A stretch of 25,928 bases of DNA from a virus (lineage: Duplodnaviria; Caudoviricetes): positions 1-25,928 of IMG/VR virus record IMGVR_UViG_3300005805_000427; one strand, given 5' to 3'. A program made the position numbers and the translations under genes. The notes beneath the pieces were generated by a model, which saw only the letters and a program-made list of their open reading frames with translations, did no database searches and was not told the origin of the DNA. This document shows, piece by piece, positions 1 to 16,881 of this stretch (positions are counted from its first letter, which is position 1; each line of letters begins with the position of its first letter).

Positions 1-106
1 GGGCAAGGAATCTTTTTACAATTGGGCGGCGGCGCGGGTTGCAAGACCTAGCGCAAAAAAACGGAGCTAGCCCAAAACCCATTCTTCCGACTTGAAAACC
101 GAAGTC

Positions 107-568
107 ATGACGCAGGAAGCGTTGGCGAAAGCGTTGCAAACAACGACGCGCACGCTGCGCGAATGGCAAAAGCGCGAGGACTGGCCGACCGGCGCGAGCG
201 TCGAAGAATTGCTGGCATGGCGCGACGCGGCGGGACTAGGTCGCGTCAAGGACGGCTCGATCGGCGGCTTGAAAGCCGAGCTAATGCGCCGCGACATTGC
301 TTTGCGCGACCTCAAACTCCAGCGCGAGCGCGCCGAGGTAGTCGAGCGCGAGACCGTCCGCGAAATGCTGCGCCTGCTCGGCACGAAGCTTGATCTTCTC
401 CTGCGCCTCAAGCTAGAGGTGGAGCTCGGTCCGCGGGTGGCCGGCAAGTCAGCCGCGGAGGCGAACGTTGAGGGCGCGATCATTCTCGACGAAATCCGCG
501 AAGTGGTGAACGCGAACCTGGCACGCTTCGAGGCGGATGCGATCAAGACGACGGTGGCCGAAGAATAG
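107..568 (+). CDS. terS: Terminase small subunit (Nu1-like, N-terminal winged HTH)
   Basis: MTQEALAKALQTTTRTLREWQKREDWP HTH followed by a coiled coil (LKAELMRRDIALRDLKLQRERAEVVE), as in lambda Nu1-type TerS; upstream of a gpA-type TerL. ATG 107 preferred over TTG 92. Confidence 0.8.
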   Translation: MTQEALAKALQTTTRTLREWQKREDWPTGASVEELLAWRDAAGLGRVKDGSIGGLKAELMRRDIALRDLKLQRERAEVVERETVREMLRLLGTKLDLLLRLKLEVELGPRVAGKSAAEANVEGAIILDEIREVVNANLARFEADAIKTTVAEE

Positions 569-767
569 GCGTGGAAACCTGGGCGCCCGCGCGTTTGCTC
601 TGGCGCTTAGTTGGGCGCCCCTTGAGCTTCGCAAGCACTAGCCTCTGGACCCACTCAGGCGGCAACCTATCGCCCATGATCCACGAATACGCGGTGCGCT
701 CGGGGCAGCCGATACGCCGGACAATCTCCCCAGCCCCCACCCGCTTGCACTCGCTTACAAAGTCCAT
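543..767 (-). CDS. Small HTH (Cro-like) DNA-binding protein in cassette A
   Basis: GAGEIVRRIGCPERTAYSWIMGDRLPPEWVQRLVL resembles a Cro/XRE HTH; divergent from 845..1072 across two palindromes; C-terminus runs through the attC half-site and overlaps the terS 3' end. Confidence 0.6.
   Translation of the reverse strand: MDFVSECKRVGAGEIVRRIGCPERTAYSWIMGDRLPPEWVQRLVLAKLKGRPTKRQSKRAGAQVSTPILRPPSS
593..616 (-). repeat. attC-like half-site (R''/L'' arm only), left end of array
   Basis: GTTTGCTCTGGC-GCTTA-GTTGGGC matches the arm GTTGGCTCTGGC-N5-GTTAG of the three full sites; no partner arm found upstream. Confidence 0.7.
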
Positions 768-787
768 GCCGCAATCCACGCGGAACA

Positions 788-835
788 TTGCACAATGTGC
801 AAGATTGTTCTTGCGCTGCGCTGCACACTGTGCAG
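788..835. promoter_or_regulatory. Two palindromic operator-like sites, TGCACAnTGTGCA, in a divergent intergenic region
   Basis: TTGCACA-A-TGTGCAA (788-802) and CTGCACA-C-TGTGCAG (821-835), both perfect inverted repeats, between the HTH gene (-) and 845..1072 (+). Confidence 0.7.
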
Positions 836-844
836 TCTGAGCGC

Positions 845-1072
845 ATGAAATACGCCGCCCGAATCGAAGCCGAAAAGAAACTCGCTATCGCCGCCGCTGC
901 CATGAAGCGCGCTGAAATGGGAACCGACGAATCCGCCTACCTCGCCGCAGCAGCGGCATGGAAAGCCAGCATCGCGGAACTAGTGTCAGCTGAGATAGCG
1001 CACCCGACCGCTCGCGAGAGCGCCCGCCGCGCAAACATCATCCGTCTGGAAAACCGAGGGCTCGCCGCATGA
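845..1072 (+). CDS. Hypothetical Ala-rich helical protein (cassette A)
   Basis: ATG at 845 just downstream of the palindromes (ORF track opens at 788); stop overlaps next start (ATGA at 1069-1072). Confidence 0.6.
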   Translation: MKYAARIEAEKKLAIAAAAMKRAEMGTDESAYLAAAAAWKASIAELVSAEIAHPTARESARRANIIRLENRGLAA

Positions 1073-1359
1073 GCCCAGCCGAAGCCGAAAACATGGCGAA
1101 AGCCACGCGGATGCGGAACGCCGAGCTGGCGTCCGCTCTGCGGACAATCGCGAGAATCCAAGATGATGACGCGCTGGCCAAGTGGGTGCTCGGCGTTGCG
1201 GCGGAACGCCTCGAAGCCAAGAAGCGTCCCGAGGAGTCTATGTCTTTCGCGGCATACATGGCCTACAATAAAAGAATTTCGACCCAAAACGCCACGCCTG
1301 CCCCGCGGGAACTAGGTCCGCTCGATTGCAAGCGACCGGACCAGCCGGGGCAGGCGTAA
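1069..1359 (+). CDS. Hypothetical protein (cassette A)
   Basis: 96-aa ORF coupled to the previous gene by an ATGA overlap; ends 8 bp before attC1. Confidence 0.55.
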   Translation: MSPAEAENMAKATRMRNAELASALRTIARIQDDDALAKWVLGVAAERLEAKKRPEESMSFAAYMAYNKRISTQNATPAPRELGPLDCKRPDQPGQA

Positions 1360-1367
1360 CTTTATTC

Positions 1368-1486
1368 GCCCAACAAATAAGATGAGCCACGAAGACAGCG
1401 CAAATTTCCAACTGGCATCCGATGCCGGCCCAGCTTCTGAGCAACCCCTGACCGCTGTCGCCGTTGGCTCTGGCGACTTGTTAGGG
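1368..1486 (-). repeat. attC-like site 1 (119 bp)
   Basis: + strand: GCCCAAC-N6-GATGAGCCAC...GACAGCG / CGCTGTC...GTTGGCTCTGGC-N5-GTTAGGG; imperfect hairpin with conserved AAC/GTT core. Confidence 0.85.
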
Positions 1487-1762
1487 CGTTTCTTGTCGCC
1501 CGAACTCCAGCGCCAATTTCCGAAACTAAGCCGGCCCCGAAAGCCAAGGCGCTGCCGGCTCTGCTACGGTAAAATCGAAATCGGGGAGCCGTGCTGCCGG
1601 TGGGAATACCTCGAACCGGGCGAAGGCTACGGCACGTCCTACGCACACCCCGAATGCTACCAAGTCACGATCGATAGCAAGTGGGACGAAGGAGACTGGG
1701 AGTGCTGTTCCCCTGGCGACGTCACTCGCCCTAACCGACAAGATGAGCCACGCCGCAGCTGA
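1382..1762 (+). CDS. Cys/His-rich hypothetical protein, putative zinc finger (cassette B)
   Basis: CRLC...HPEC motif; starts within attC1 (encodes AVGSGDLLG) and stops within attC2 (PNRQDEPRRS). Confidence 0.7.
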   Translation: MSHEDSANFQLASDAGPASEQPLTAVAVGSGDLLGRFLSPELQRQFPKLSRPRKPRRCRLCYGKIEIGEPCCRWEYLEPGEGYGTSYAHPECYQVTIDSKWDEGDWECCSPGDVTRPNRQDEPRRS

Positions 1763-1814
1763 GATGAGCACGCAAAACCCGGCGCCGGCCGTTGGCTCTG
1801 GCGCATTGTTAGGC
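1729..1814 (-). repeat. attC-like site 2 (86 bp)
   Basis: + strand: CCCTAAC-CGACAA-GATGAGCCACGCCG...CGGCCGTTGGCTCTGGC-GCATT-GTTAGGC. Confidence 0.85.
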
Positions 1815-2075
1815 GATTTTGCGGTGAGACGTGGCTGGCGCGCATTTAAGTGTGATGATTGTGGCCACGAATGGGAATGGCCATCGCGCGACCGACACAG
1901 TACAAGCGGCGAAGACTGCCCGAAGTGCAACGCTTGGATTTTCCCTCATTCCAACAGGCCGGATGCGATGCTTCCGTGCGATTCTATGGGCAATCTCCTC
2001 ATTCCGTGGAATGCTTCGCCTAACCGAAAAGATGAGCCACGGCCTGCGCAGCAATCGACAAAGGAAACACCATGA
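1764..2075 (+). CDS. Zinc-ribbon hypothetical protein (cassette C)
   Basis: FKCDDCGHEW...CPKC; ATG 1764 lies 1 nt after the upstream stop (alternative in-frame ATG 1743); begins AVGSGALLG, ends PNRKDEPR... in attC3. Confidence 0.7.
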   Translation: MSTQNPAPAVGSGALLGDFAVRRGWRAFKCDDCGHEWEWPSRDRHSTSGEDCPKCNAWIFPHSNRPDAMLPCDSMGNLLIPWNASPNRKDEPRPAQQSTKETP

Positions 2076-2128
2076 GCAATGAGAAAAACCAATCGGCGCA
2101 GGACGTTGGCTCTGGCGCATTGTTAGCG
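2018..2128 (-). repeat. attC-like site 3 (111 bp)
   Basis: + strand: GCCTAAC-CGAAAA-GATGAGCCAC..CCTGCGC / GCGCAGG..GTTGGCTCTGGC-GCATT-GTTAGCG; the loop contains AAGGAAACACC-ATG. Confidence 0.85.
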
Positions 2129-2473
2129 ATATGTGTTAATTGCAAATACTGGCGGCGCGGCGGGAGATTTGAGCATGTATGGTCTGCAAACGCGAAGCCA
2201 GGCGGCGAACGCTTCACGGTTGGACCCATCACGCGCGCTTTTGATGAGGTGGTCGATCTGCACACTGACCCAAACGAAAAATTCGGAATATGCTTACACC
2301 CGCTCATATCTTGCTGCGGTCGAAATGGGTGGCTTGGGTGGGAGAATAGCAACGACCCTAAGGCGCTAAAAGTGGAGGCATACGACGAGCGCGGCTTCAT
2401 CTCCACGGGCGAGGAATTCGGATGCCGCCATTTTTCCGCTAACTCGAATGATGAGCCACGCCGACCTCTCTGA
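2072..2473 (+). CDS. Cys-rich hypothetical protein (cassette D)
   Basis: CVNCKYW...GIC...FGCRHF; SD-like AAGGA at 2061; ATGA overlap with upstream stop; stop abuts the terL ATG at 2474. Confidence 0.75.
   Translation: MSNEKNQSAQDVGSGALLAICVNCKYWRRGGRFEHVWSANAKPGGERFTVGPITRAFDEVVDLHTDPNEKFGICLHPLISCCGRNGWLGWENSNDPKALKVEAYDERGFISTGEEFGCRHFSANSNDEPRRPL
2437..2460 (-). repeat. attC-like half-site (L'/R' arm only), right end of array
   Basis: CGCTAAC-TCGAAT-GATGAGCCACG matches the left arm of attC1-3; no intact GTTGGCTC...GTT arm downstream (terL begins at 2474). Confidence 0.75.
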
Positions 2474-4258
2474 ATGACCTGCGCTGACGACCTTCTTGCA
2501 AGCCTGCGCCTGCCTCGCCCGGACCGTGCCGCAATATACGACTGGGCGCGACGGCATGTGCAATTGCCGGAGAGCTACGCGACGCCGGGGCCGTTCAACG
2601 TGCGGCTCTCGCCTTGGCTCGTGCCGATCTTCGATGCGCTGCAAGACCCGCTGGTCCGGCGCGTGCATTTCCGCAAGGCGGTGCAGATTGGCGGCACGCT
2701 CGTGGCCGATGTCTGGTTGCCGTGGATTATCGCGAACGATCCGGGCCCGATCTCGTGGACGATGCAGACCGACGAGATGGTTGAGAAGCATGCGAAGACC
2801 CGCTTGTGGCCGTTGCTGGAGCGATGCCGTCCGGTAGCCGCGATGCTACCTAAGCCGGGACCGCACCGGACCACGACGGAGATTTTCTTCGGCGGATTCT
2901 TCCTGACGTTGAACGCGGCGAACCTTTCGACCCAGCAGAGCCAGTCGATCCGGTACAAAATTAACGACGAGCTTTGGCTCCCGCGCTGGCAGGAGATTTA
3001 CGGGCACGCCGTCGCGCGCGTGTCCAAGTTCGAGGAAGTCGGCCGGTCGAAGATATACAACGCGTCGCAAGCTCCGGTGATGGACGCTGAAACCGGCAAC
3101 GTCGAAGACACGAGCTTCCGCAGCGGCGACCAAGGCGAGTGGCACGCGGAGTGTCCGGCCTGCCGGAAGTTGCACCCAGTTGCCTTTGAGCAGATCACGC
3201 AAGACAATCGGCGGGCGGGCCTCGTTTGGGACCGCTCCGCGAAGCGTGATGATGACACTTGGGATGTTGCGCGCGTCGTCGAGACGGTGCGTTTCCGCTG
3301 CATGCATTGCGGGCATGAGTCGCCGGACAACGATGCGACCCGCGCCGGCTGGGCGAAGACTGGCCGCTTCGTGCCGCAAAACCCGAAGGCGTCACGCGAG
3401 GTGCGCTCATTCCGCATCGAGGCGATTGTAAGCAGGCCGATGCGCTTGCTCGCGGAGGAGTGGGCGCACGCCGAGAACACACTCGTGCGAACTGGCGACG
3501 AGTCCGCGAAGATCGAGTTTCGCACGAAGCGCGAGGCGCGACCTTGGGTTGTCGAGAAGAAGGTCGTCAACCTATTCGCGGCAAAGAGCGGCTATACCGT
3601 CGCAACTTATGCGGATGGATCGCCGATAGAAAACGAACGCTTGCGCGTGATGACAATCGACCGGCAGCTCGATCACTTTTGGGTCGAGGTCGGCGCGTTT
3701 CTCGACGGTCCAATATACCGGCAACTCTGGTTCGGTCGCGTTGAGACTCGCACCATGTTGCGCGAGATTCAGAGTCGCTATCGCGTGCCGTCATTCACCG
3801 TCGTGCAGGATCGCGGATATAAGCCTGCGGAAGTTGACCGCGACTGCGTCGAGTTTGGCTGGCGCGGAATGCGCGGCTATGCGCGGAAGTCGTGGACGAT
3901 GCGCGACGAGGCCAGCGGCACGCTGCTCAACTATCCGTTCTCCGAGCCGCAGATCAGCGACTACGCGGGCGGCGATGCGCATTTCTACAACTGGTCAGGT
4001 GACTATTTCAAAGACCTTCTCGCGCTCGCACTAGAGGGAAAAGGCGAGTTGAAGTGGCAGATGCCCGACGACGTGAATCCGTTGTATATTGAGCACCTAA
4101 AGGGTGAGGTGAAAACCGAGATTCGTTCCGGCGTCTGGGAGTGGCGCGAGGTTCGCAGCAACGCGCCGAATCACGGCCTCGACACGAGCGCCATGATGCT
4201 TTGCGTCGCGACCATTGCTGGCGTCCTACGATACGTGCCCAAAACGGACGCGATGTAA
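2474..4258 (+). CDS. terL: Terminase large subunit, lambda gpA family
   Basis: Walker A-like RKAVQIGGT, Walker B RYKINDE, SGDQGEWHAECPAC and CMHC zinc motifs, nuclease acidic motifs (MTIDRQ, VQDRGY, NHGLDT). Confidence 0.95.
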   Translation: MTCADDLLASLRLPRPDRAAIYDWARRHVQLPESYATPGPFNVRLSPWLVPIFDALQDPLVRRVHFRKAVQIGGTLVADVWLPWIIANDPGPISWTMQTDEMVEKHAKTRLWPLLERCRPVAAMLPKPGPHRTTTEIFFGGFFLTLNAANLSTQQSQSIRYKINDELWLPRWQEIYGHAVARVSKFEEVGRSKIYNASQAPVMDAETGNVEDTSFRSGDQGEWHAECPACRKLHPVAFEQITQDNRRAGLVWDRSAKRDDDTWDVARVVETVRFRCMHCGHESPDNDATRAGWAKTGRFVPQNPKASREVRSFRIEAIVSRPMRLLAEEWAHAENTLVRTGDESAKIEFRTKREARPWVVEKKVVNLFAAKSGYTVATYADGSPIENERLRVMTIDRQLDHFWVEVGAFLDGPIYRQLWFGRVETRTMLREIQSRYRVPSFTVVQDRGYKPAEVDRDCVEFGWRGMRGYARKSWTMRDEASGTLLNYPFSEPQISDYAGGDAHFYNWSGDYFKDLLALALEGKGELKWQMPDDVNPLYIEHLKGEVKTEIRSGVWEWREVRSNAPNHGLDTSAMMLCVATIAGVLRYVPKTDAM

Positions 4259-4529: not shown

Positions 4530-6890
4530 ATGGACGCTACGTCTTTCGACTTTCAAAAGGTCATCCAGAATCGTCCTTGGTTCGAGCGTGCAATCGAAAC
4601 CGTTGCGCCTGCCTATGCGCTGAAGCGTCTTGAAGCGCGCATCCAGCGCGAGATGTTTTCGTATAACGCGGCGATGACGGATCGTTTATACGCTCCACGC
4701 CAATACGGACAGCCGAGCGAATCGACGCAGACGGTGCGCGACCGCATCGTGATGATGTGGGAGGCGCGCGACCTCGTTGAGAATTTCCCGCAAGCGCGCG
4801 AGATCACGCGCAAATTTTCGCTCTATTGTACGCCGCAGGAGTTCTCGGCGATGACTGGTGACCGCGCGTACAATAACATCGTGAATGAATACTTTCACGA
4901 CTGGTGCAAGCGCGCCGACGTGACTGGGCGGCACTCGTTCCGCAAGCTCGTGCAGATTGGGTGCGAGGAGCGTCCGGTTGACGGCGACTTCGGATTTGTC
5001 CTTCGTCGTCTCGACAAGGAACTGAAGATCCAGATCGTTCCGGCGACTCGCATCGGCAATCCGAATGCGCTCACGGCGCAGCCTGCGAACTATTATCAAG
5101 GCGTGATCGTCGATGAGTTCGGTCGTCCGGTTGCGTATCAAATCTATCGGGTGACGCGGGATGGTGTATACTTCGATCCCGAGGAAATCCCGGCGGCGAA
5201 TTTCTGTCACTTCTTCGATCCGTTCCGCAGCGATCAATTCCGAGGCGTGTCCGATTTCCACGCCTGCGCGCGGTCGGCTCGGATGCTGTATGGCATTCTT
5301 GAGGCCGAGAAGACCGGCGTGCGCTTCGCTGCGCAGCAGGCGGCACTTGTATTCTCGGACAAGGCGGCGGCGAATCCGCGCAATCTGTTTACGCCGAATC
5401 CGTCGATCCAGTTGCCGAGCGGACAGGCGCAGAAAAACGAATTGTCAGAGATCGGAATGATTCGGTATTTCGGCACCGCTGATCGCATCGAGGTCATGCC
5501 CTCGCGTCCGTCGCAGGCGTTCGCCGGTTTCGTCCAGCACTTGATGCACGAGATCGCAATCGGCATCGGCATACCGCAAGGCGTTCTGTTCGGCACGCAG
5601 GACTTTAAAGGTCCGAGCGTGCGCGCCGAGTTCGCAGCGGCGGATCGCGTGTTCGTGCGGCATCAGGGCGTGCTCGTGGACAAGGTTCTCGATCCAATCA
5701 AAAATGCGGTCATCCTCGACGCCATCGCGCGCGAGGAAATTCCGCCGCCTCCGCTACAGACTGGCGAGACGATGGTGCAAGCTATCCGTCGTGCTACGCG
5801 CGGCGAATGGCGATTTCCGCCGAAGATCACAATCGACGTCGGCCGCGAGAGCGCGGCGAACATGAACGAGAACCGGCAAGGCGCGAAGTCATTGCAGGAG
5901 ATCGCCGCCGAGCAAGGCACCGACGCTTTCGGTCGTCTTGAGCAGATCGCGATGGAGGCGGCATACGTCAAGGAGCTGGCGCAAAAGTACGAGATTCCCG
6001 AAACAGCAATTCGGCTGGTGACCAATTCGCTTCCGAGCACTCCAGCCGCTGCCGCCGCTGCTGGCGACCAGGTCGCAACGTCTGCCGCGCAAGCGCAGCA
6101 AGCCGCATCTCCCGGTCAGTCTGCCTCCACCGAGAACATCGCCGAAGGCGCAACGCCCGACGCTCCGGTCGAACAGGTCAACGCCTCGGCCGATCTGATC
6201 ACGGTCAACTTCGCGGAGGATTCATACGTGCCGAATGATCGCATGGCCGCGAACGCTCGCCGCGCGCTTGAAGTTCGCGCCAGTAAACCGCCATCTCAGC
6301 GCGGCATGACTTCGGTCGGCCTGGCTCGCGCTCGTGATATTCAAAACAAGAAGCCGCTCTCAGCCGATACCGTTCGCCGGATGAAGGCATACTTCGACCG
6401 GCACGAGATCGATAAGCAAGGTTCGACGTGGGACGAGCAAGGCAAAGGATGGCAGGCATGGAACGGATGGGGCGGCGACGCCGGAAGAACGTGGGCGAAC
6501 GCAATCGTCGAGCGGCTCAACAAAGCCGAGCGCAAGGAAGCCGCGTCAACCGAGCAGCAGCGCAGACTTGAATCCGCCGACGTTGTTGCGATCACGCTCG
6601 AACAGCGGCCAGCCGATCCGCACGCATGGCTCAATGCCGTCGAGCAATACCGCAAGGAGCTTTCGGTCAAGGCAGCGACCGCGACCAATCCGATTCTCGA
6701 CAAGCCGCTCGTGCAATTCGCCGAGCCGAAGAAGTTTGATCTGCCGACGCCAGTCGCAGGCGAGACGCACGATGACTTCATGGCTCGCTGCATGGCCGAT
6801 CCAGTAGCAACCGCAGAGTTTCCAGACGCCGCGCAACGGAGCGCGGTCTGTATGAAACAGCACGAGGGAAAACTTCAGAAAAAGAACTGA
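4530..6890 (+). CDS. Portal protein, lambda family, with long C-terminal extension
   Basis: APAYALKRLEAR, ARDLVENFP, GVIVDEFGRPVAYQI, RSDQFRGVS motifs; core about 500 aa followed by an Ala-rich linker and extra domains. Confidence 0.92.
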   Translation: MDATSFDFQKVIQNRPWFERAIETVAPAYALKRLEARIQREMFSYNAAMTDRLYAPRQYGQPSESTQTVRDRIVMMWEARDLVENFPQAREITRKFSLYCTPQEFSAMTGDRAYNNIVNEYFHDWCKRADVTGRHSFRKLVQIGCEERPVDGDFGFVLRRLDKELKIQIVPATRIGNPNALTAQPANYYQGVIVDEFGRPVAYQIYRVTRDGVYFDPEEIPAANFCHFFDPFRSDQFRGVSDFHACARSARMLYGILEAEKTGVRFAAQQAALVFSDKAAANPRNLFTPNPSIQLPSGQAQKNELSEIGMIRYFGTADRIEVMPSRPSQAFAGFVQHLMHEIAIGIGIPQGVLFGTQDFKGPSVRAEFAAADRVFVRHQGVLVDKVLDPIKNAVILDAIAREEIPPPPLQTGETMVQAIRRATRGEWRFPPKITIDVGRESAANMNENRQGAKSLQEIAAEQGTDAFGRLEQIAMEAAYVKELAQKYEIPETAIRLVTNSLPSTPAAAAAAGDQVATSAAQAQQAASPGQSASTENIAEGATPDAPVEQVNASADLITVNFAEDSYVPNDRMAANARRALEVRASKPPSQRGMTSVGLARARDIQNKKPLSADTVRRMKAYFDRHEIDKQGSTWDEQGKGWQAWNGWGGDAGRTWANAIVERLNKAERKEAASTEQQRRLESADVVAITLEQRPADPHAWLNAVEQYRKELSVKAATATNPILDKPLVQFAEPKKFDLPTPVAGETHDDFMARCMADPVATAEFPDAAQRSAVCMKQHEGKLQKKN

Positions 6891-6892
6891 CG

Positions 6893-9800
6893 ATGGACAC
6901 GCTCACTCAAGTCGAACGGCTCATTGAACTGGCGATCATTCAGCGGTCGGAATTGCGCCGACTCGTGGAGGAATTGCCGCAATTGAAGGCGCATCTCAGC
7001 GAGGAGATCGAGCGCACGTTCGAGGAAACGGAACCGCAACTGCGCGCCGAGTTGGAGGAGTGGACGACGAAACAGACTGCCGACAAGACTGCGGCACTCG
7101 GTGCTGCTCTCGAAGCGAAGATCATCGAGCTTGCAAACAGCCTCGAGCGCAGCACGCAGGCGAGATACAACGCGATCATCGCCGAGCGCGACGAGAACGC
7201 ACGCCTTGCGTCTGCGGCTGAAGAGAAGATCGCCGAGCACGCGGCCAGCCTTCCCGGCGCTGTGAAGGAAATCGTCACGGCAGAACTCGCTCGTTTCCCG
7301 CGTGCTGGTGAAATCGACAAGCTGCGCAAGGAATTCGCAGAACCGAAGACGCTGAACCCGCGCGGAAAGTGGCGTCCTGATGTTGTCTATAACAAGCTGG
7401 ATTTCGTCACGATCAACGGCGATTCATACGTGTCCGCGAAGGACGACAATCGCACGCGACCGACGCGCAGTTCGTCGGACTGGACTCTTGTCGCCGCGCG
7501 AGGAACCGGCGGCGGCGGTGGTCCGACTTCGATCACCGACTTTCTTCCGACTCCCGGCAACGGCGAGCTTCTGATCGGCAACAACGGATCGTACTCCGCT
7601 GCGCCGCTGACTGCTGGCATCGGCATCAATATCACGAGCGCGCCGGGATCAATCACCATTGACGCTTCTGGAGCGCAGGAAACGCTGACCGCAACGATCA
7701 CGAATGCCGAATCCGTTGCGATCACTCGCGGTCAAGTCGTGTATGCGTTCGGAGCAACCGGCAATCGGATGTCCGTCAAGCTGGCGTCGAATCTAAGTGA
7801 TGCCACGTCCGCGAAAACCATCGGCGTCGTGAGCGACAATTCCATTTCTGCTGGTGGAGTCGGTCAAATCACCTGCGTCGGCGTTGTAGACAATCTGATG
7901 CTTGGAAGCTATAACGAAGGCGACACGCTCTATCTCGGCGCAACTGCTGGAACATTTACCAACGTTAAGCCATATGCTCCGAATCATCTCGTGTATGTTG
8001 GCATCGTAGAGCGCGCCAACAACGGTAACGGCCAACTGTATGTGCGCATCCAGAATGGCTACGAACTTGACGAGATTCACGACGTACAAATCAACGCGCC
8101 GAAGCTCGCCGGCCAGGTCATCGTTTACGATCAAACAAATGACCTCTGGAAAAACGCGCGGATCAACGCTGGCGCAGGCGTCTCGATAACGAATGGTGAT
8201 GCCTCGATCACGGTTGCCGCTGACGTTGTAAGCGTCTTCGGAAGGACCGGCTCCGTCACTGCGTCAAGTGGCGACTATTCTGCCGCGCAGATCACGAACA
8301 CGCCAGCGGGCAGCATTACCGCGACCGACGTTCAAGCGGCGATCAACGAACTAGATTCGGAGAAGCTCGCTAAGGCGTCGAACCTAAGTGACCTCGCGGA
8401 CGTATCGACGGCGCGGAACAATCTCGGACTCGGCTCGGCTGCGCTGGAAAGCACGACCTACTTTATCCAGACCGGACAAGCCGCAGGCGGCGACCTAACG
8501 GGCAATTATCCCAACCCTTCGCTGACGATCAGCGGAGTGATTGCTGGCAACTACGGTTCGGCATCCAGCGTGCCTTCGATCACGATTGACGCGAAGGGCC
8601 GCATAACTTCCGTCACCGCGCCGAACATTCAGATCATCGAGTCGCAGGTCACCGGCCTGACGAGCGCGCTGGCAAGCAAGATTCCAACGACGGAGAAGGG
8701 CGCGGCAAATGGCGTGGCGACGCTTGATGCTGGCGGCAAGGTTCCGACAACGCAGTTGCCCGATTCCGTTCTCGGTCAGCTCTACTACGAGGGCACGTGG
8801 GATGCCTCGACGAACACGCCGACGCTCATCAATCCTCCGAGCGCATCAACTCGCGGTGATTATTACATCACGAGCGCGGCTGGCTCATTCGCCAGCATCA
8901 CCTTCGACGTCGGCGACTGGATTGTATCCAGCGGTTCCGATTGGCAGAAGGTGGATAACACCGACGCGGTCGCATCCGTTTTCGGTCGCAATGGAAACAT
9001 CGTTGCGGCAATCGGTGACTATACTGCCTCGCAAGTCACGAATGTTCCGGCTGGAGGGATCGTTGCGACGACGGTGCAGGCGGCGATTGATGAACTCGAT
9101 ACTGAGAAGCTCGCGAAGGCGAGCAACCTGTCGGATGTATTGTCGACCTCGACGGCGCGTCTGAATCTCGGCATCGGAACGATGGGCGTGCAGGACTCGA
9201 ACAGCGTTGCGATTACGGGCGGCTCGATTAACGGAACGACGGTGGGCGCATCGTCGCCGAATACCGGAGCGTTTACTAGTCTCACGAGCAGCAGCACGAC
9301 GACGCTGAACGGCACCACGATCCCGGCGTCCTCCACCCTGCTCACCAGTGGCGGCGCCCTGGGTACGCCTTCGAGCGGCACCCTGACCAATGCGATCGGA
9401 TTGCCTGTCTCGACCGGCCTCAGCGGCCTGGGCACGGGCGTGGCAACGGCCCTTGCGGTCAACGTGGGCAGTGCTGGGGCCTTGGTGACGAATGGCGGCG
9501 CCCTCGGCACGCCGTCGAGCGGCACGGTCACGAACTTTACCGGCACGGCCTCGATCAACATCAACGGCACAGTCGGCGCAACGACCCCGAGCACGGGCGC
9601 GTTCACGTCGCTGAGTGTGAGCGGCGGTGCATATATTACAGGAGCGGTAAACATTGGCTCAACGGGAGTCGGCCTTGAGACCGGCGTGGCTTCATCCGTT
9701 AACGTCCTTCGCGGATTTGATCGCACGACCATTGCCTACGCGCCGGTTTCGATTCGCAGTTCGACCTTTGACTACAAAAGTGATGAGACTTCCACAGTGT

Positions 9801-9970
9801 TGTCGGCCAGTTCGACCGGCCTCGCCGTCACCGGCACGTTGAGCAGCACAGGCGCACTCGCAATCGGCAACACCGTGAACACCGTAAGCCCGACGAGTCC
9901 GAACCGCACCGTGACAATCGTTATCGGTGGCACGACGTACTATCTTCACGCAAAAACGACCAATGATTAA
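6893..9970 (+). CDS. Large fibre/adhesin-like virion protein
   Basis: 1025 aa: N-terminal coiled coil, NPRGKW...Y...D.V...GDSY...DWTLV module, G/T/S-rich beta repeats, KASNLSD...ARNNLGLG and KGAANGVATLDAGGKVP fibre motifs. Confidence 0.75.
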   Translation: MDTLTQVERLIELAIIQRSELRRLVEELPQLKAHLSEEIERTFEETEPQLRAELEEWTTKQTADKTAALGAALEAKIIELANSLERSTQARYNAIIAERDENARLASAAEEKIAEHAASLPGAVKEIVTAELARFPRAGEIDKLRKEFAEPKTLNPRGKWRPDVVYNKLDFVTINGDSYVSAKDDNRTRPTRSSSDWTLVAARGTGGGGGPTSITDFLPTPGNGELLIGNNGSYSAAPLTAGIGINITSAPGSITIDASGAQETLTATITNAESVAITRGQVVYAFGATGNRMSVKLASNLSDATSAKTIGVVSDNSISAGGVGQITCVGVVDNLMLGSYNEGDTLYLGATAGTFTNVKPYAPNHLVYVGIVERANNGNGQLYVRIQNGYELDEIHDVQINAPKLAGQVIVYDQTNDLWKNARINAGAGVSITNGDASITVAADVVSVFGRTGSVTASSGDYSAAQITNTPAGSITATDVQAAINELDSEKLAKASNLSDLADVSTARNNLGLGSAALESTTYFIQTGQAAGGDLTGNYPNPSLTISGVIAGNYGSASSVPSITIDAKGRITSVTAPNIQIIESQVTGLTSALASKIPTTEKGAANGVATLDAGGKVPTTQLPDSVLGQLYYEGTWDASTNTPTLINPPSASTRGDYYITSAAGSFASITFDVGDWIVSSGSDWQKVDNTDAVASVFGRNGNIVAAIGDYTASQVTNVPAGGIVATTVQAAIDELDTEKLAKASNLSDVLSTSTARLNLGIGTMGVQDSNSVAITGGSINGTTVGASSPNTGAFTSLTSSSTTTLNGTTIPASSTLLTSGGALGTPSSGTLTNAIGLPVSTGLSGLGTGVATALAVNVGSAGALVTNGGALGTPSSGTVTNFTGTASININGTVGATTPSTGAFTSLSVSGGAYITGAVNIGSTGVGLETGVASSVNVLRGFDRTTIAYAPVSIRSSTFDYKSDETSTVLSASSTGLAVTGTLSSTGALAIGNTVNTVSPTSPNRTVTIVIGGTTYYLHAKTTND
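8228..9180 (+). repeat. Diverged internal duplication (about 70 aa) in the fibre gene, about 8228-8437 and 8972-9180
   Basis: SVFGRTGSVTASSGDYSAAQITNTPAGSITATDVQAAINELDSEKLAKASNLSD vs SVFGRNGNIVAAIGDYTASQVTNVPAGGIVATTVQAAIDELDTEKLAKASNLSD. Confidence 0.9.
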
Positions 9971-10801: not shown

Positions 10802-10965
10802 ACAGTCCTCGACCAATGGATTTTCTCGTAGCGTCATTGCCTACGGTATCGGCAACAATCATAGCGCAGGCAAATCAGGTCGTCGGCCTGATCGGATCGC
10901 TGCTCGGCATCGCCTATCTGCTCTGGCGATGGAAGCGCGAATGGAGCGGAAAAAAGCATGACTGA
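10798..10965 (+). CDS. Small membrane protein (holin-like)
   Basis: 55 aa; VVGLIGSLLGIAYLLWRWKR transmembrane segment with basic tail; overlaps both neighbours. Confidence 0.6.
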   Translation: MNSPRPMDFLVASLPTVSATIIAQANQVVGLIGSLLGIAYLLWRWKREWSGKKHD

Positions 10966-11908
10966 CTGGAACACGCTACACCGCGACGAGACGCGGAAGC
11001 TATACGAGTCGGAGATTGCCGGTCTGAAGAAGGAGCTTCAGGTCGCGAGGACTGCTCTCGATAACGCGACCAAGGCGCGAAAGACGAAGTTGCCTGCGCC
11101 AGTCGCAACACGCCGAAGGATTGGAGGCGACATTGTGCGCGTCGTGATTCCCGACACGCATGGATGCCTGATAGACAAGTCCGCTATCTCGGCGATGCTG
11201 TCGGACATCAAGCTGCTTGATCCGCAGGAAATTATTCTGCTGGGCGATCACGTAGACTGCGGCGGGTTCCTCGCGCAGCATCACGTCATGGGATATGTCG
11301 CCGAAACAGACTATACGTACGAAGAAGACCTTGCCGCCGCTAAGACGTTCCTCGATGCGCTCCAAGCCGCAGCACCGAGGGCAAAAGTCGAATACCTCGA
11401 AGGCAACCACGAGAGGCGCGTCGAGACGTGGTGCGTGACACAGGTTCTACGCCACAAGAAGGACGCCGAAGGCTTGCGACGATTGCTTGCACCTGAGTTT
11501 CGTCTCGGCCTGAAGGAACGCGGCATATCGTATTATCGACAAGGCGAATTCTATGACGAGCTTCCGGTTCCCGGCGTCATCAAGCGTGGCAAGTGTTTTT
11601 TCTTTCACGGCGTTTCAACCGCGAAGAACGCAGTCGGCGCAACGGTGGACAAGATCGGCGGCAACTGTGTATTCGGTCACACGCATCGAGCGCAGAGCAA
11701 TATCGTGCGGCGCATTTCCAGCGGTATCGTCGGCGCGTGGAATCCCGGTTGCCTCTGTCAGCTTCAGCCGCTCTGGCAGCATACGGCACCGACTGATTGG
11801 TCGCATGGCTATGCGGTGCAGCTCGTTGCCGCGAGCGGAGCGTTCCTGCATCTAAATATACCGATCATCGACGGCGAATCGCATTTCGCCGCATTGCTCA
11901 AGCTATGA
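10958..11908 (+). CDS. Calcineurin-like metallophosphoesterase
   Basis: All five motifs: IPDTH, LGDHVD, EGNHE, FFHG, GHTH. Confidence 0.92.
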   Translation: MTDWNTLHRDETRKLYESEIAGLKKELQVARTALDNATKARKTKLPAPVATRRRIGGDIVRVVIPDTHGCLIDKSAISAMLSDIKLLDPQEIILLGDHVDCGGFLAQHHVMGYVAETDYTYEEDLAAAKTFLDALQAAAPRAKVEYLEGNHERRVETWCVTQVLRHKKDAEGLRRLLAPEFRLGLKERGISYYRQGEFYDELPVPGVIKRGKCFFFHGVSTAKNAVGATVDKIGGNCVFGHTHRAQSNIVRRISSGIVGAWNPGCLCQLQPLWQHTAPTDWSHGYAVQLVAASGAFLHLNIPIIDGESHFAALLKL

Positions 11909-14545: not shown

Positions 14546-16246
14546 ATGCGCTTTTCGCTTTGCGTGATATGCGGCAACGAGTCGCACCACATAGGCCAGA
14601 TGCTCGCAGCATTTGCTCCTGCGTTTGACGAGCTTTCGCTCGTGCGCGCAATCGGCAAGCGTGTGCCTGATGGAACAAAGGAGATTGCCGAGGAGTGGTG
14701 CCGATCAAACGGCAAGGCGTTTGTTTTCTCCGAGTATATTAACGAGCCGACCGCACGCGATTGGGATCACGTCGATTCATTTGCTCGCGCTCGCAATGGC
14801 GCCTTTAAGCAGGCCAAAGGCGAATGGCTTTTCTGGGCCGACTGCGACGACGTGGTGCGCGGTGCCGAGAATCTACGCCGCACGCTGGAGCAAGTTCCGG
14901 CAGACGTGCAAATGGTGCGCTTTTCGTATGACGTCAAAGGGTCGAACAAATGCTTGTTCCGCGAGCGAGCGATTCGCCGAGACGCTTTCCACTCCGGTCG
15001 AGTCTGGCATCACGATGTACACGAGAACCTGCTGATTCTCGCTGGCGACAAGCATCTCGATCTCGGCGACGTTGTCTGGGTTCACGCACCAAAAGAAATC
15101 AAGCAGGAGAACCGAAGGCGCAATCTCCGCATCCTCGCAAACTCGGTTCGCGAATGCGCGACGCAGTATTTCTACATTCATCAGGAGCACTACTGTAACC
15201 AGAACCGCGAGGCCGCGCTGGAGTTTGGTCGCCTCGCGTTGCAGTTTCCGAATCTTCAACCGGCTTTCCGATACGAGGCGTTGCTGAATTGCGCTCGTCT
15301 GACTAATTCCAGCCGCGAAGCGAAGTCTCTTTTGCTCGAAGCGCATGGCGTTTTCCCGTGGTGCCGAGAGGCATTCGCCGGTCTTGTGCTGCACGCCTTC
15401 GAGCAGAAGGACTATTCAATGGCGGTCTATTGGGCGCAGCGCATGACGGAATTGCGCGAGCCATTGAGCGACAAGCGACCGTGGACGCACGAGGCGAAGT
15501 GGTACGGCTGGGCCGGATACGATCTTGCCGCTCGCGCATTCCGAGCCGAAGGAAACAAGGCGATGGCGGCGGTTCTTCAGGCTCAATACTATCTCGGCAA
15601 GACTCCGAAGATTTCGCTCCTGCACGCAACGCGAGGTCGATCTTCAATGGCGGTTTCAACGCGGGATATGTGGCTCAATGCGGCCAGCGATCCGACGCGC
15701 GTTGAGCATATCTTCGCGGTCGATGAGGACGATGCCGTCAGCGTCGAGATGGCGAAGCAGTTCATCTCCGTCACTTCGTCGGACAAATCGTGCGTCGCTG
15801 CGTGGAATCTCGCTGCGGAATCTGCGCGCGGAGAAATCCTCGTACAACTCTCGGACGATTGGGTGCCATGCGCCGGATGGGACGAGAAGCTGCTAGATCT
15901 CGTGAAGGATCGCGACGCTCACTCCGAGCCATTCGTGATCGCGCCGAGCGATGGAAGCCGAAAGGACGACTTGCTCTGCATGGCGATCTTGTCGCGTGCG
16001 CGCTACGAGCAGCAAGGGCATCTGTTCTTTCCTGAGTATGAGTCTGTATTCAGCGACAACGAATTCTCTCACCGAGCATGGCGCGACGGCATCGTGATCG
16101 ACGCGAGAGATCGCCTGCGCTTCGATCACCGGCATCCGGCTTTCGGCAAGGCGAACATGGACAAGACATATTCGCATACGAATTCCCGCGAGCGATACGT
16201 GCGCGGCGAGGCACTATTCAAGTCACGCAACCCAGACGCGAAATGA
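14546..16246 (+). CDS. Double glycosyltransferase: GT2-like, TPR, second GT-A domain
   Basis: SLCVICGNE, FARARN, WLFWADCDD, VHENL (GT2); helical TPR-like middle; ISLLHATRGR, AVDEDD, VAAWN, LVQLSDD (second GT-A). Confidence 0.88.
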   Translation: MRFSLCVICGNESHHIGQMLAAFAPAFDELSLVRAIGKRVPDGTKEIAEEWCRSNGKAFVFSEYINEPTARDWDHVDSFARARNGAFKQAKGEWLFWADCDDVVRGAENLRRTLEQVPADVQMVRFSYDVKGSNKCLFRERAIRRDAFHSGRVWHHDVHENLLILAGDKHLDLGDVVWVHAPKEIKQENRRRNLRILANSVRECATQYFYIHQEHYCNQNREAALEFGRLALQFPNLQPAFRYEALLNCARLTNSSREAKSLLLEAHGVFPWCREAFAGLVLHAFEQKDYSMAVYWAQRMTELREPLSDKRPWTHEAKWYGWAGYDLAARAFRAEGNKAMAAVLQAQYYLGKTPKISLLHATRGRSSMAVSTRDMWLNAASDPTRVEHIFAVDEDDAVSVEMAKQFISVTSSDKSCVAAWNLAAESARGEILVQLSDDWVPCAGWDEKLLDLVKDRDAHSEPFVIAPSDGSRKDDLLCMAILSRARYEQQGHLFFPEYESVFSDNEFSHRAWRDGIVIDARDRLRFDHRHPAFGKANMDKTYSHTNSRERYVRGEALFKSRNPDAK

Positions 16247-16881
16247 ACGTTCCCGAGCATTATCAAATCGACGCGAAGATAGGCGCGCTTCGGTCGAGGG
16301 ATCGTCGCGTGACTGCGGTTTACGATCACGCCTACGTAGCACGATATGAGAACTATCCACAGCGTGAATTGTCGGCGATCAGAGCGAAGCTGGTGCATCG
16401 CTTTTCCGAATTTGCGATCAATGTTTGCGACGTAGGCTGCGGCACAGGTGCTTTCCTCGAAGAGATGAAACGCACGCAGCCGGGAATCGTTTGCTGCGGT
16501 CACGATGTTTCGCCTTACCCGCTTCCGTCTTTTATCAATCGAGTCGGCGCAGACTGGCACGAGTTGCAATGGGACACGGTAACGTTCTTTGATAGTCTTG
16601 AGCACTTCGATTCGCTCGACTTCGTTGAGCATCTGCGCGCTCGTGCGGTGATCGTATCGCTGCCGTGGTATCATCCGTACATGGGATCGGAATGGTTCGC
16701 TCGATGGAAACATCGCAGGCCGGGAGAACATCTCTGGCACTTCACGCCGGTAAGCCTGACGAGACTATTCGCGCAGGCTGGATTCCGTCCGGTCTATGTC
16801 GGCAATCCCGAAGATGAAGTGCGAAAGCCGGATTCGGATTCCTGCGCTCCAAACATTCTGACGATGGCATTTCGCCGATGA
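16243..16881 (+). CDS. Class I SAM-dependent methyltransferase
   Basis: VCDVGCGTGAFL, FFDSLEH, EHLWHFTPVSL; ATG 16243 overlaps upstream stop. Confidence 0.88.
   Translation: MNVPEHYQIDAKIGALRSRDRRVTAVYDHAYVARYENYPQRELSAIRAKLVHRFSEFAINVCDVGCGTGAFLEEMKRTQPGIVCCGHDVSPYPLPSFINRVGADWHELQWDTVTFFDSLEHFDSLDFVEHLRARAVIVSLPWYHPYMGSEWFARWKHRRPGEHLWHFTPVSLTRLFAQAGFRPVYVGNPEDEVRKPDSDSCAPNILTMAFRR

Follow-up and report, generated by a model that had tools for sequence, protein, structure and literature searches.

Integron cassettes are delimited by attC sites. In the accessible text of two papers (PMC5027507; PMC3053210), these sites have AAC and GTT boxes, L boxes, a bulged T on the L'' arm, and sizes in the range 57-141, and the available part of the first (Nivina et al. 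2016, PMC5027507) places the cut at the A-C step of AAC. Clusters of attC sites lacking integron integrases (CALINs) occur in phage genomes, and phage attC sites recombine with IntI1, according to the available text of Qi et al. 2023 (PMC9892861). In the cases in that text, the layout of the sites is either typical or divergent; the complete integrons there are only captured pieces of host chromosomes or of class 1 integrons. Here we describe a 1.9-kb array of such sites in a virus record of 25,928 nt (IMGVR_UViG_3300005805_000427). We call this the window: it is the whole stretch of DNA that was analysed and also the whole record. The record is about 70% complete and encodes the head and the tail of a tailed phage, and the array occupies the gap between its genes for the terminase small subunit (terS, 92-568) and the terminase large subunit (terL, 2474-4258).

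We propose that the array is a row of attC cassettes of the Opitutaceae type, with no integrase and with three antisense genes, and that it entered by capture as a single block, which had been part of a longer array in a phage (probability roughly 0.6). Judging by their sequence, the repeats themselves are integron attC sites of the Opitutaceae type. The sites, the units between them, and the three open reading frames (ORFs) that run across them are:

589..617, minus strand: s0, truncated attC of cassette A, with the L''-spacer-R'' arm only (R'' box 610-617); repeat family D1
610..1373, no strand: body of cassette A, 763 bp; 8-nt box pair
1367..1488, minus strand: s1, whole attC of cassette B (its top strand is the minus strand); predicted crossover 1373/1374; fold z -2.76 on the plus strand
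1374..1734, minus strand: cassette B, 361 bp, flanked by two whole attC sites; 9-nt box pair
1382..1762, plus strand: ORF B, 126 aa, Cys/His-rich; starts in s1, crosses AAC in frame, and stops in s2
1727..1816, minus strand: s2, whole attC of cassette C; predicted crossover 1734/1735; weak fold, z -1.17
1735..2023, minus strand: cassette C, 289 bp, flanked by two whole attC sites; 9-nt box pair
1764..2075, plus strand: ORF C, zinc-ribbon-like (Pfam Zn_ribbon_8, E 1.5e-4, below the cut-off); starts in s2, alternative start 1743
2016..2128, minus strand: s3, whole attC of cassette D; predicted crossover 2023/2024; fold z -1.93
2024..2442, minus strand: cassette D, 419 bp, whose right-hand partner is a half-site only; 7-nt box pair
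2072..2473, plus strand: ORF D, 133 aa, Cys-rich, from the ORF listing; starts in s3, and its stop abuts the terL ATG
2437..2460, minus strand: s4, half attC (L'-spacer-R'), probably from a lost fifth cassette; repeat family D3; predicted crossover 2442/2443

The three whole sites have the layout of attC: inverted AAC and GTT core boxes, 5-6-nt spacers, L boxes, and a length within 57-141 bp. From AAC to GTT they span 111, 78, and 103 nt, and their 13-nt arms are symmetric. The predicted folds have one bulged T (on the L'' arm), and the sequence points to a second T 6 nt away; these are T and not the usual G. The two outer sites have no such fold (s0 forms no hairpin, z 0.06; s4, z 1.21). The array shares with the attC sites described in those papers the core boxes, the 5-6-nt spacers, the L boxes, the size (86-119 nt), and the paired ends of each cassette, along with a predicted bulged T on the L'' arm of the bottom strand and a predicted crossover between A and C. 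With three whole attC sites and two halves but no intI, the array fits the definition of a CALIN. In this it is like the phage CALINs in the available text of PMC9892861, which also have several attC sites in a phage and no integrase. The array is not headed by an attI: the sequence after the AAC at 2443 is half of an attC and is unlike the attI-like ends that we found in hosts and in other phages.

The same type of site is found in chromosomes. The left-arm motif is present at at least 140 loci in genome contigs, including arrays of more than 10 copies, and the 80 matches listed are mostly from Verrucomicrobiota. In three of the five genomes with long arrays that we tested, an integron integrase scores above the NCBIfam cut-off. 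At those host loci where intI could be located, AAC|AGTGT marks the end of the array, a common non-attC sequence follows, and the intI match lies about 490-610 nt further on. The strand of the host intI is the one on which the sites read as they do on the window's plus strand. The standard integron layout assigns the bottom strand from this arrangement, so the window's plus strand is the bottom strand. On this basis, the crossovers are predicted to lie at AA|C, at 1373/1374, 1734/1735, 2023/2024, and 2442/2443. An earlier, sequence-only reading of this DNA had arrived at the same four positions.

Paired boxes at the ends of each unit

In each of the four units, the two boxes at its own ends are exactly complementary, over 8, 9, 9, and 7 nt in cassettes A to D. 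The 12 other pairings of these boxes reach 3-6 nt, and the two boxes inside one integrated site pair for just 3, 6, and 5 nt (2, 1, and 2 mismatches in the 7-mer). The sequence-only reading described both patterns correctly. If boxes are drawn at random from the same site family, then a match of at least 7 nt turns up in 12.7% of the pairs from viruses (1296) and in 20.9% of those from bacteria (13,225), so pairing in four of four units has a chance probability of about 3e-4 to 2e-3. This estimate is conservative because the true pairs sit inside the pools. Because of the pairing, reconstituted circle junctions fold better than the integrated sites, by 2-4 kcal/mol.

That reading also took the pairing as a special footprint of circular intermediates, but it is ordinary. 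In chromosomal arrays of Verrucomicrobiota with the same attC type, 82 of the 102 cassettes with a detectable next site have ends that pair over 7-8 nt (18 integrated sites reach 7 nt), so the pairing is the normal signature of a cassette. It is said to be textbook knowledge, reportedly going back to work by Recchia and Hall in 1995 and by Stokes and others in 1997.

In DNA, the evidence for a unit that is a cassette in its own right comes from cassette C. A homologue in another phage contig (L111) is 69% identical and begins and ends at the same boxes, with other neighbours and another attC loop. Its boxes differ from those of the window's cassette C at 3 of 9 positions and still pair for 9 nt, so they have co-varied, which requires either renewed selection or renewed formation of the cassette. 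The start of a second homologue (L304) is cut off, and it ends at the same AAC, after which there is a third site and a third neighbour. (L304:1-1016 is a short metagenome contig with a diverged type of site and at least two further units, one of which has an 8-nt box pair.) The sequence-only reading would have been abandoned if homologues had boundaries away from AAC or always formed one fixed block. In L111 and L304, the boundaries are at AAC and the neighbours are different, with evidence from DNA for C only. Genes of the C family also exist in a free form, with no boxes, at five other metagenome loci (four of them distinct) and in P0002.

For cassette B, the evidence is at the protein level only. 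Four homologues share the body between the residues that are coded at the two boxes and diverge exactly outside these limits (LG...PN); three of them have site-like leaders, with different tails after Pro-Asn. Most proteins similar to ORF B are hypothetical proteins from viruses, and a search for the B body in viral contigs gave two spurious short matches. For ORF D, a word-index search returned only the match to itself, and another comparison gave 23 matches. Twenty of these are small homologues whose natural start and end are exactly at the positions of D's boxes and which, judged by eye, have no site peptide. Paired own ends together with different neighbours are therefore found for C in DNA and for B in protein only; A and D have no such case. 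A search of GenBank phages with site s2 gave three matches, all at chance level.

If phages do run an integron economy of their own, as we suggest below, the coexistence of free and cassette forms in the C and D families would make the birth of a cassette directly testable. Gene families that have both versions, with the cassette limits at the natural start and stop of the gene, offer a tangible example in which to study the making of gene cassettes.

Inverted genes and phage integrases

In a canonical cassette, the gene is on the top strand and ends at or before the attC. ORFs B, C, and D are instead antisense to attC; only an ORF in cassette A that resembles helix-turn-helix (HTH) proteins runs in the conventional direction. 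Each of the three antisense genes starts inside its own attC and takes its leader from the L''-R'' arm; it then passes through the following AAC in frame, as a codon, and terminates in the loop of that next site. None of the three brings a start or stop of its own, since both come from attC sequence. The stop of ORF B is one base before the ATG of ORF C, and the stop of ORF C overlaps the ATG of ORF D. Neither these antisense ORFs nor the outer half-sites (about 589-617 and 2437-2460) were part of the sequence-only reading. Cassette A, with its HTH-like gene and two self-contained ORFs, is not of this frame-locked kind.

We compared 36 distinct viral sites from 20 loci with 115 bacterial sites. 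An ATG within the site opens at least 40 codons at 25 of the viral sites (and at all three whole sites of the window) but at only 17 of the bacterial sites. This rule is common and not universal, since 11 of the 36 viral sites have no such start. A stop in the frame of AAC lies inside the site at all 36 viral sites, as compared to 74 of 115 bacterial sites, and, of the 22 sites that could be scored, 18 have the stop and the start -8 to +12 nt apart. In the chromosomal integrons of Opitutaceae and other Verrucomicrobiota, which are sedentary (for instance the Horticoccus array, L147-L152), the attC arms and the box pairing are the same as in the window but the cargo is different: for 94 of the 102 cassettes, the longest ORF occupies the conventional strand. 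Separately, one viral locus (L268:2881-4675) has three near-identical leaders coded by attC, which suggests repeated copies of one site.

Among the 21 other viral records with such sites, two contain a full-length gene similar to intI: G011 (L297:1-5769; 286 bits, over the cut-off) and G012 (L298:5700-9329, with the same locus in L095; 212 bits). Their neighbours show that both are phages (portal, protease, and capsid genes; helicase and SSB), and in G011 the intI is followed directly by the portal, protease, and capsid genes. The order in both is an inverted array, a last cassette with paired boxes, an attI-like sequence that resembles the hosts' (the chromosomal integrons of Verrucomicrobiota have this end in common with the two phages), and the start of intI about 55 nt further on. 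The two proteins are 45% identical to each other, and the one from G011 is 36-39% identical to host IntI. Both keep what we take to be the catalytic residues and the IntI-type insertion. G012 also has eroded leaders with no detectable site. A search of viral contigs for further close relatives of the G011 protein found itself and two partial matches only. From their sequence, G011 and G012 appear to be complete integrons of phages, with their cargo inverted. Arrays like the window's could plausibly be assembled on integrons of this type, a link that we infer.

Box pairing and attC clusters carried by phages were already known. What we add are the co-varied boxes, the proposed capture as a block, the apparent swapping of loops, the free counterparts of cassette genes, and the two phage records with IntI and attI. 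Antisense cargo coupled in frame and a phage-adapted intI and attI are not among the cases described in the available text of PMC9892861. The supplement of that paper (Qi et al. 2023), which lists 17 CALINs and may hold inverted cases, lies outside this comparison. Beyond that paper, our literature search, which mostly covered sources other than subscription journals, found nothing on inverted in-frame cargo or phage-adapted integrons, and the accessible part of PMC8618304 has nothing on either.

Cargo that is inverted and in frame, together with the two phage integrons, suggests that phages use cassettes for accessory genes of their own, beyond carrying those of hosts. More tentatively, and with rather less confidence than we have in block capture, we suggest that phages of Verrucomicrobiota run an integron economy of their own. 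Ordinary genes of phages would be made into cassettes whose start and stop are coded by attC, so that any order gives one coupled operon; some phages would stack them with a diverged IntI and attI; loops would be swapped; and pieces of arrays would spread as blocks.

A proposed route of the array into the terminase gap

At both ends, the array is cut within a site. At the left edge, the attC of cassette A begins in the middle of the stem, past AAC and not at a crossover. An AAC just after terS (576-578) was considered as the insertion point and was rejected: a remnant of the phage backbone (569-588) continues through it, and because this homology runs on to about 588, the AAC is not a junction. 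(A 9-nt direct repeat, at 580-588 and 612-620, flanks the truncated s0, and it may mark microhomology that was used at the left junction.) At the right edge, the sequence of s4 identifies it as a probable L'-R' arm of a lost fifth cassette and not an attI.

We propose the following course of events. Each unit would once have existed as a circle that joined its R'' to its own R', formed and mobilised by an IntI through cuts in the folded plus strand at AA|C. An attI elsewhere would have collected the units; it probably belonged to a phage integron similar to the ones in G011 and G012. A piece running from part of A's attC to part of the fifth cassette's attC would then have been swapped into the gap by recombination that did not involve IntI. 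Two whole attC sites enclose only B and C, so excision, by the IntI of a host or of a co-infecting phage, is predicted for B, C, and B+C alone (361, 289, and 650 bp), while A and D would be fixed. The sequence-only reading had predicted circles of 361, 289, and 419 bp; its arithmetic is right, but the 419-bp circle for D is doubtful, as D, like A, has only a half-site on one side. With an in-frame AAC codon and a site-borne stop beside the next start, translation would stay coupled down to terL even if a cassette were lost or exchanged. The source of transcription would be terS or else the divergent region in cassette A.

We found 138 relatives of terL and scored the gap in the best 80. It is empty in 41 of these (terS overlaps terL), holds other DNA of 300-4284 nt in 28, and could not be scored in 11. 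None of the 28 filled gaps contains the half-site motif, and none of the 21 relatives' gaps that we compared with the window's shares DNA with it, among them the gaps of the relatives at 97% and 96%. The gap is a hotspot for the exchange of blocks. The array shares this hotspot with phage morons in the relatives, which differ in having no attC motifs. Across the whole records of five terL relatives, the attC motif gave one match, as compared to two control matches.

An alternative is that a host IntI inserted the four units one at a time, first into a secondary site and then into the resident attC sites, and that the ends decayed later. All of the internal junctions are at AA|C with paired boxes, an AAC does lie directly after terS, and phage attC sites can recombine with IntI1 (available text of PMC9892861). 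However, the backbone homology passes that AAC, s4 is best read as what is left of one more cassette, attI is missing, and the relatives' gaps show neither the half-site motif (28 filled gaps) nor DNA in common with the window (21 compared gaps). We consider this alternative unlikely. The sequence-only reading had proposed four independent insertions into this phage. The box pairing does not show this, and the proposal is not supported, given half-sites at the outer ends, a left edge that is off the crossover, and the lack of attI and intI.

Another alternative is that the sites derive from integrons but are now shuffled mainly by homologous recombination between the conserved arms of 20-25 nt. 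No circles would form today, and the box pairing would date from the making of each cassette. This might account for the phages with sites but no intI, which are the majority, for the eroded leaders in G012, for the lack of crossover joints in contigs, and for the loops. From sequence comparisons, attC loops and the leaders that they code appear to have been exchanged between unrelated gene bodies. Such exchange would be explicable by homologous recombination in the conserved arm, by top-strand events, or by repeated formation of cassettes, all of which preserve the box pairing. Against this alternative, the boxes of cassette C co-vary between two phages and still pair over 9 nt, and two phages keep attI along with an IntI whose catalytic residues are presumably intact. 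Homologous shuffling as the main process strikes us as improbable, although it and block capture can both operate.

Several results weigh against capture of an IntI-built array. The parting of loops from bodies is at odds with strict bottom-strand recombination: s1 (compared over 1378-1494) has 83% identity across 117 nt with an attC in front of a different gene in L111, and the leader of P0004 is 84% identical to a site that fronts a different gene in L097. The window's record, at 70% complete, has no match to TIGR02249 (intI), and none of the 10 site-bearing records that are at least 90% complete has a full-length IntI. Sites s2 and s3 fold weakly. Only 10 of 21 viral units reach a 7-nt box pair, by a detector that overlooks diverged sites. 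No homologue of ORF A1 was found in viral contigs, and none of the 20 small homologues of D (of 23 matches) is in cassette form. The excess of in-site starts in viruses has a Fisher p of 1e-9, but sites within a locus are not independent, and the closeness of stops to starts is partly built in because the site consensus itself contains an ATG. In 401 genomes of Verrucomicrobiota, the best terL match is 35% identical, and a search for close prophage relatives gave matches in 13 of them, with identities no higher than 37%, so we do not assign a host to this phage.

The sequence-only reading called for a search for circle junctions or deletions at the four crossovers. The contigs of eight sequencing runs contain no such joint at a crossover, which says little for or against, as contigs cannot show that a joint is absent. 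Those of X1-X4 have no circle or deletion joints, and those of X5, X6, X8, and X10 have six joints listed, none at AA|C. The three of these six that lie among the sites (with sides of 24-31 nt) reflect other copies of attC. A contig from X10 is nearly identical to the window from 2457 onward and does not cover the bodies of B-D, which is a hint only.

Finally, the repeats could be signals in RNA (hairpins for translation coupling or processing) with an incidental likeness to attC; the stops and starts do cluster in the loops, but the same family forms chromosomal arrays beside intI and attI with genes on the other strand, the repeats match no family in Rfam, and the paired boxes are 200-750 nt apart across a gene and not within a hairpin, so we regard this as very improbable.

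Other features of the window and its relatives

The remaining features in and beside the array are:

92..568, plus strand: terminase small subunit (left flank), phrog_57, weak, E 0.002; in relatives it adjoins or overlaps terL
569..588, no strand: remnant of the phage backbone, also present in relatives between terS and terL; it matches L012 at 18 of 20 nt, and L011 and L082 are similar
543..788, minus strand: ORF of 81 aa, HTH-like, with the direction of a conventional cassette gene, exiting through s0; Pfam HTH_28, E 0.025, below the cut-off
789..834, no strand: two near-identical 13-bp palindromes (789-801 and 822-834), seen in the sequence, in the divergent gap between the HTH-like ORF and ORF A1
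845..1072, plus strand: ORF A1, 75 aa, function unassigned; a longer frame begins at 788
1069..1359, plus strand: ORF A2, 96 aa, function unassigned; its stop precedes the AAC box
2474..4258, plus strand: terminase large subunit (right flank), phrog_15, E 9e-47

Given their sequence, the two palindromes are likely operators, in an operator-promoter region, and cassette A likely brings a promoter. A sigma70 promoter scan called none in cassette A, including the region of the palindromes (789-834).

In terS, the stretch 92-430 was compared with the two closest terL relatives (L005 and L082). It is 93% identical only over residues 114-158, and the N-terminal part is different, which suggests a swapped DNA-binding domain. 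The gaps of L005, L008, L011-L013, L082, and others contain different morons with common promoter-like repeats. These morons end with a small basic ORF (of the NPAAVALG type) that abuts terL, and a similar module is also found within a cassette of G011. About 20 terL relatives have a lone left-arm-like motif (with one mismatch allowed), with no partner, at 0.3-5 kb downstream of terL; this is probably coding sequence.

Elsewhere in the window, 4530-9970 encodes a portal that is greatly extended at its C terminus (phrog_2859); after it comes an ORF of 1025 aa that has matches to tail proteins and is sited inside the head cluster. Genes for a glycosyltransferase and a methyltransferase lie between the capsid and tail genes, and a metallophosphoesterase gene precedes the head protease (14546-16881 and 10958-11908).

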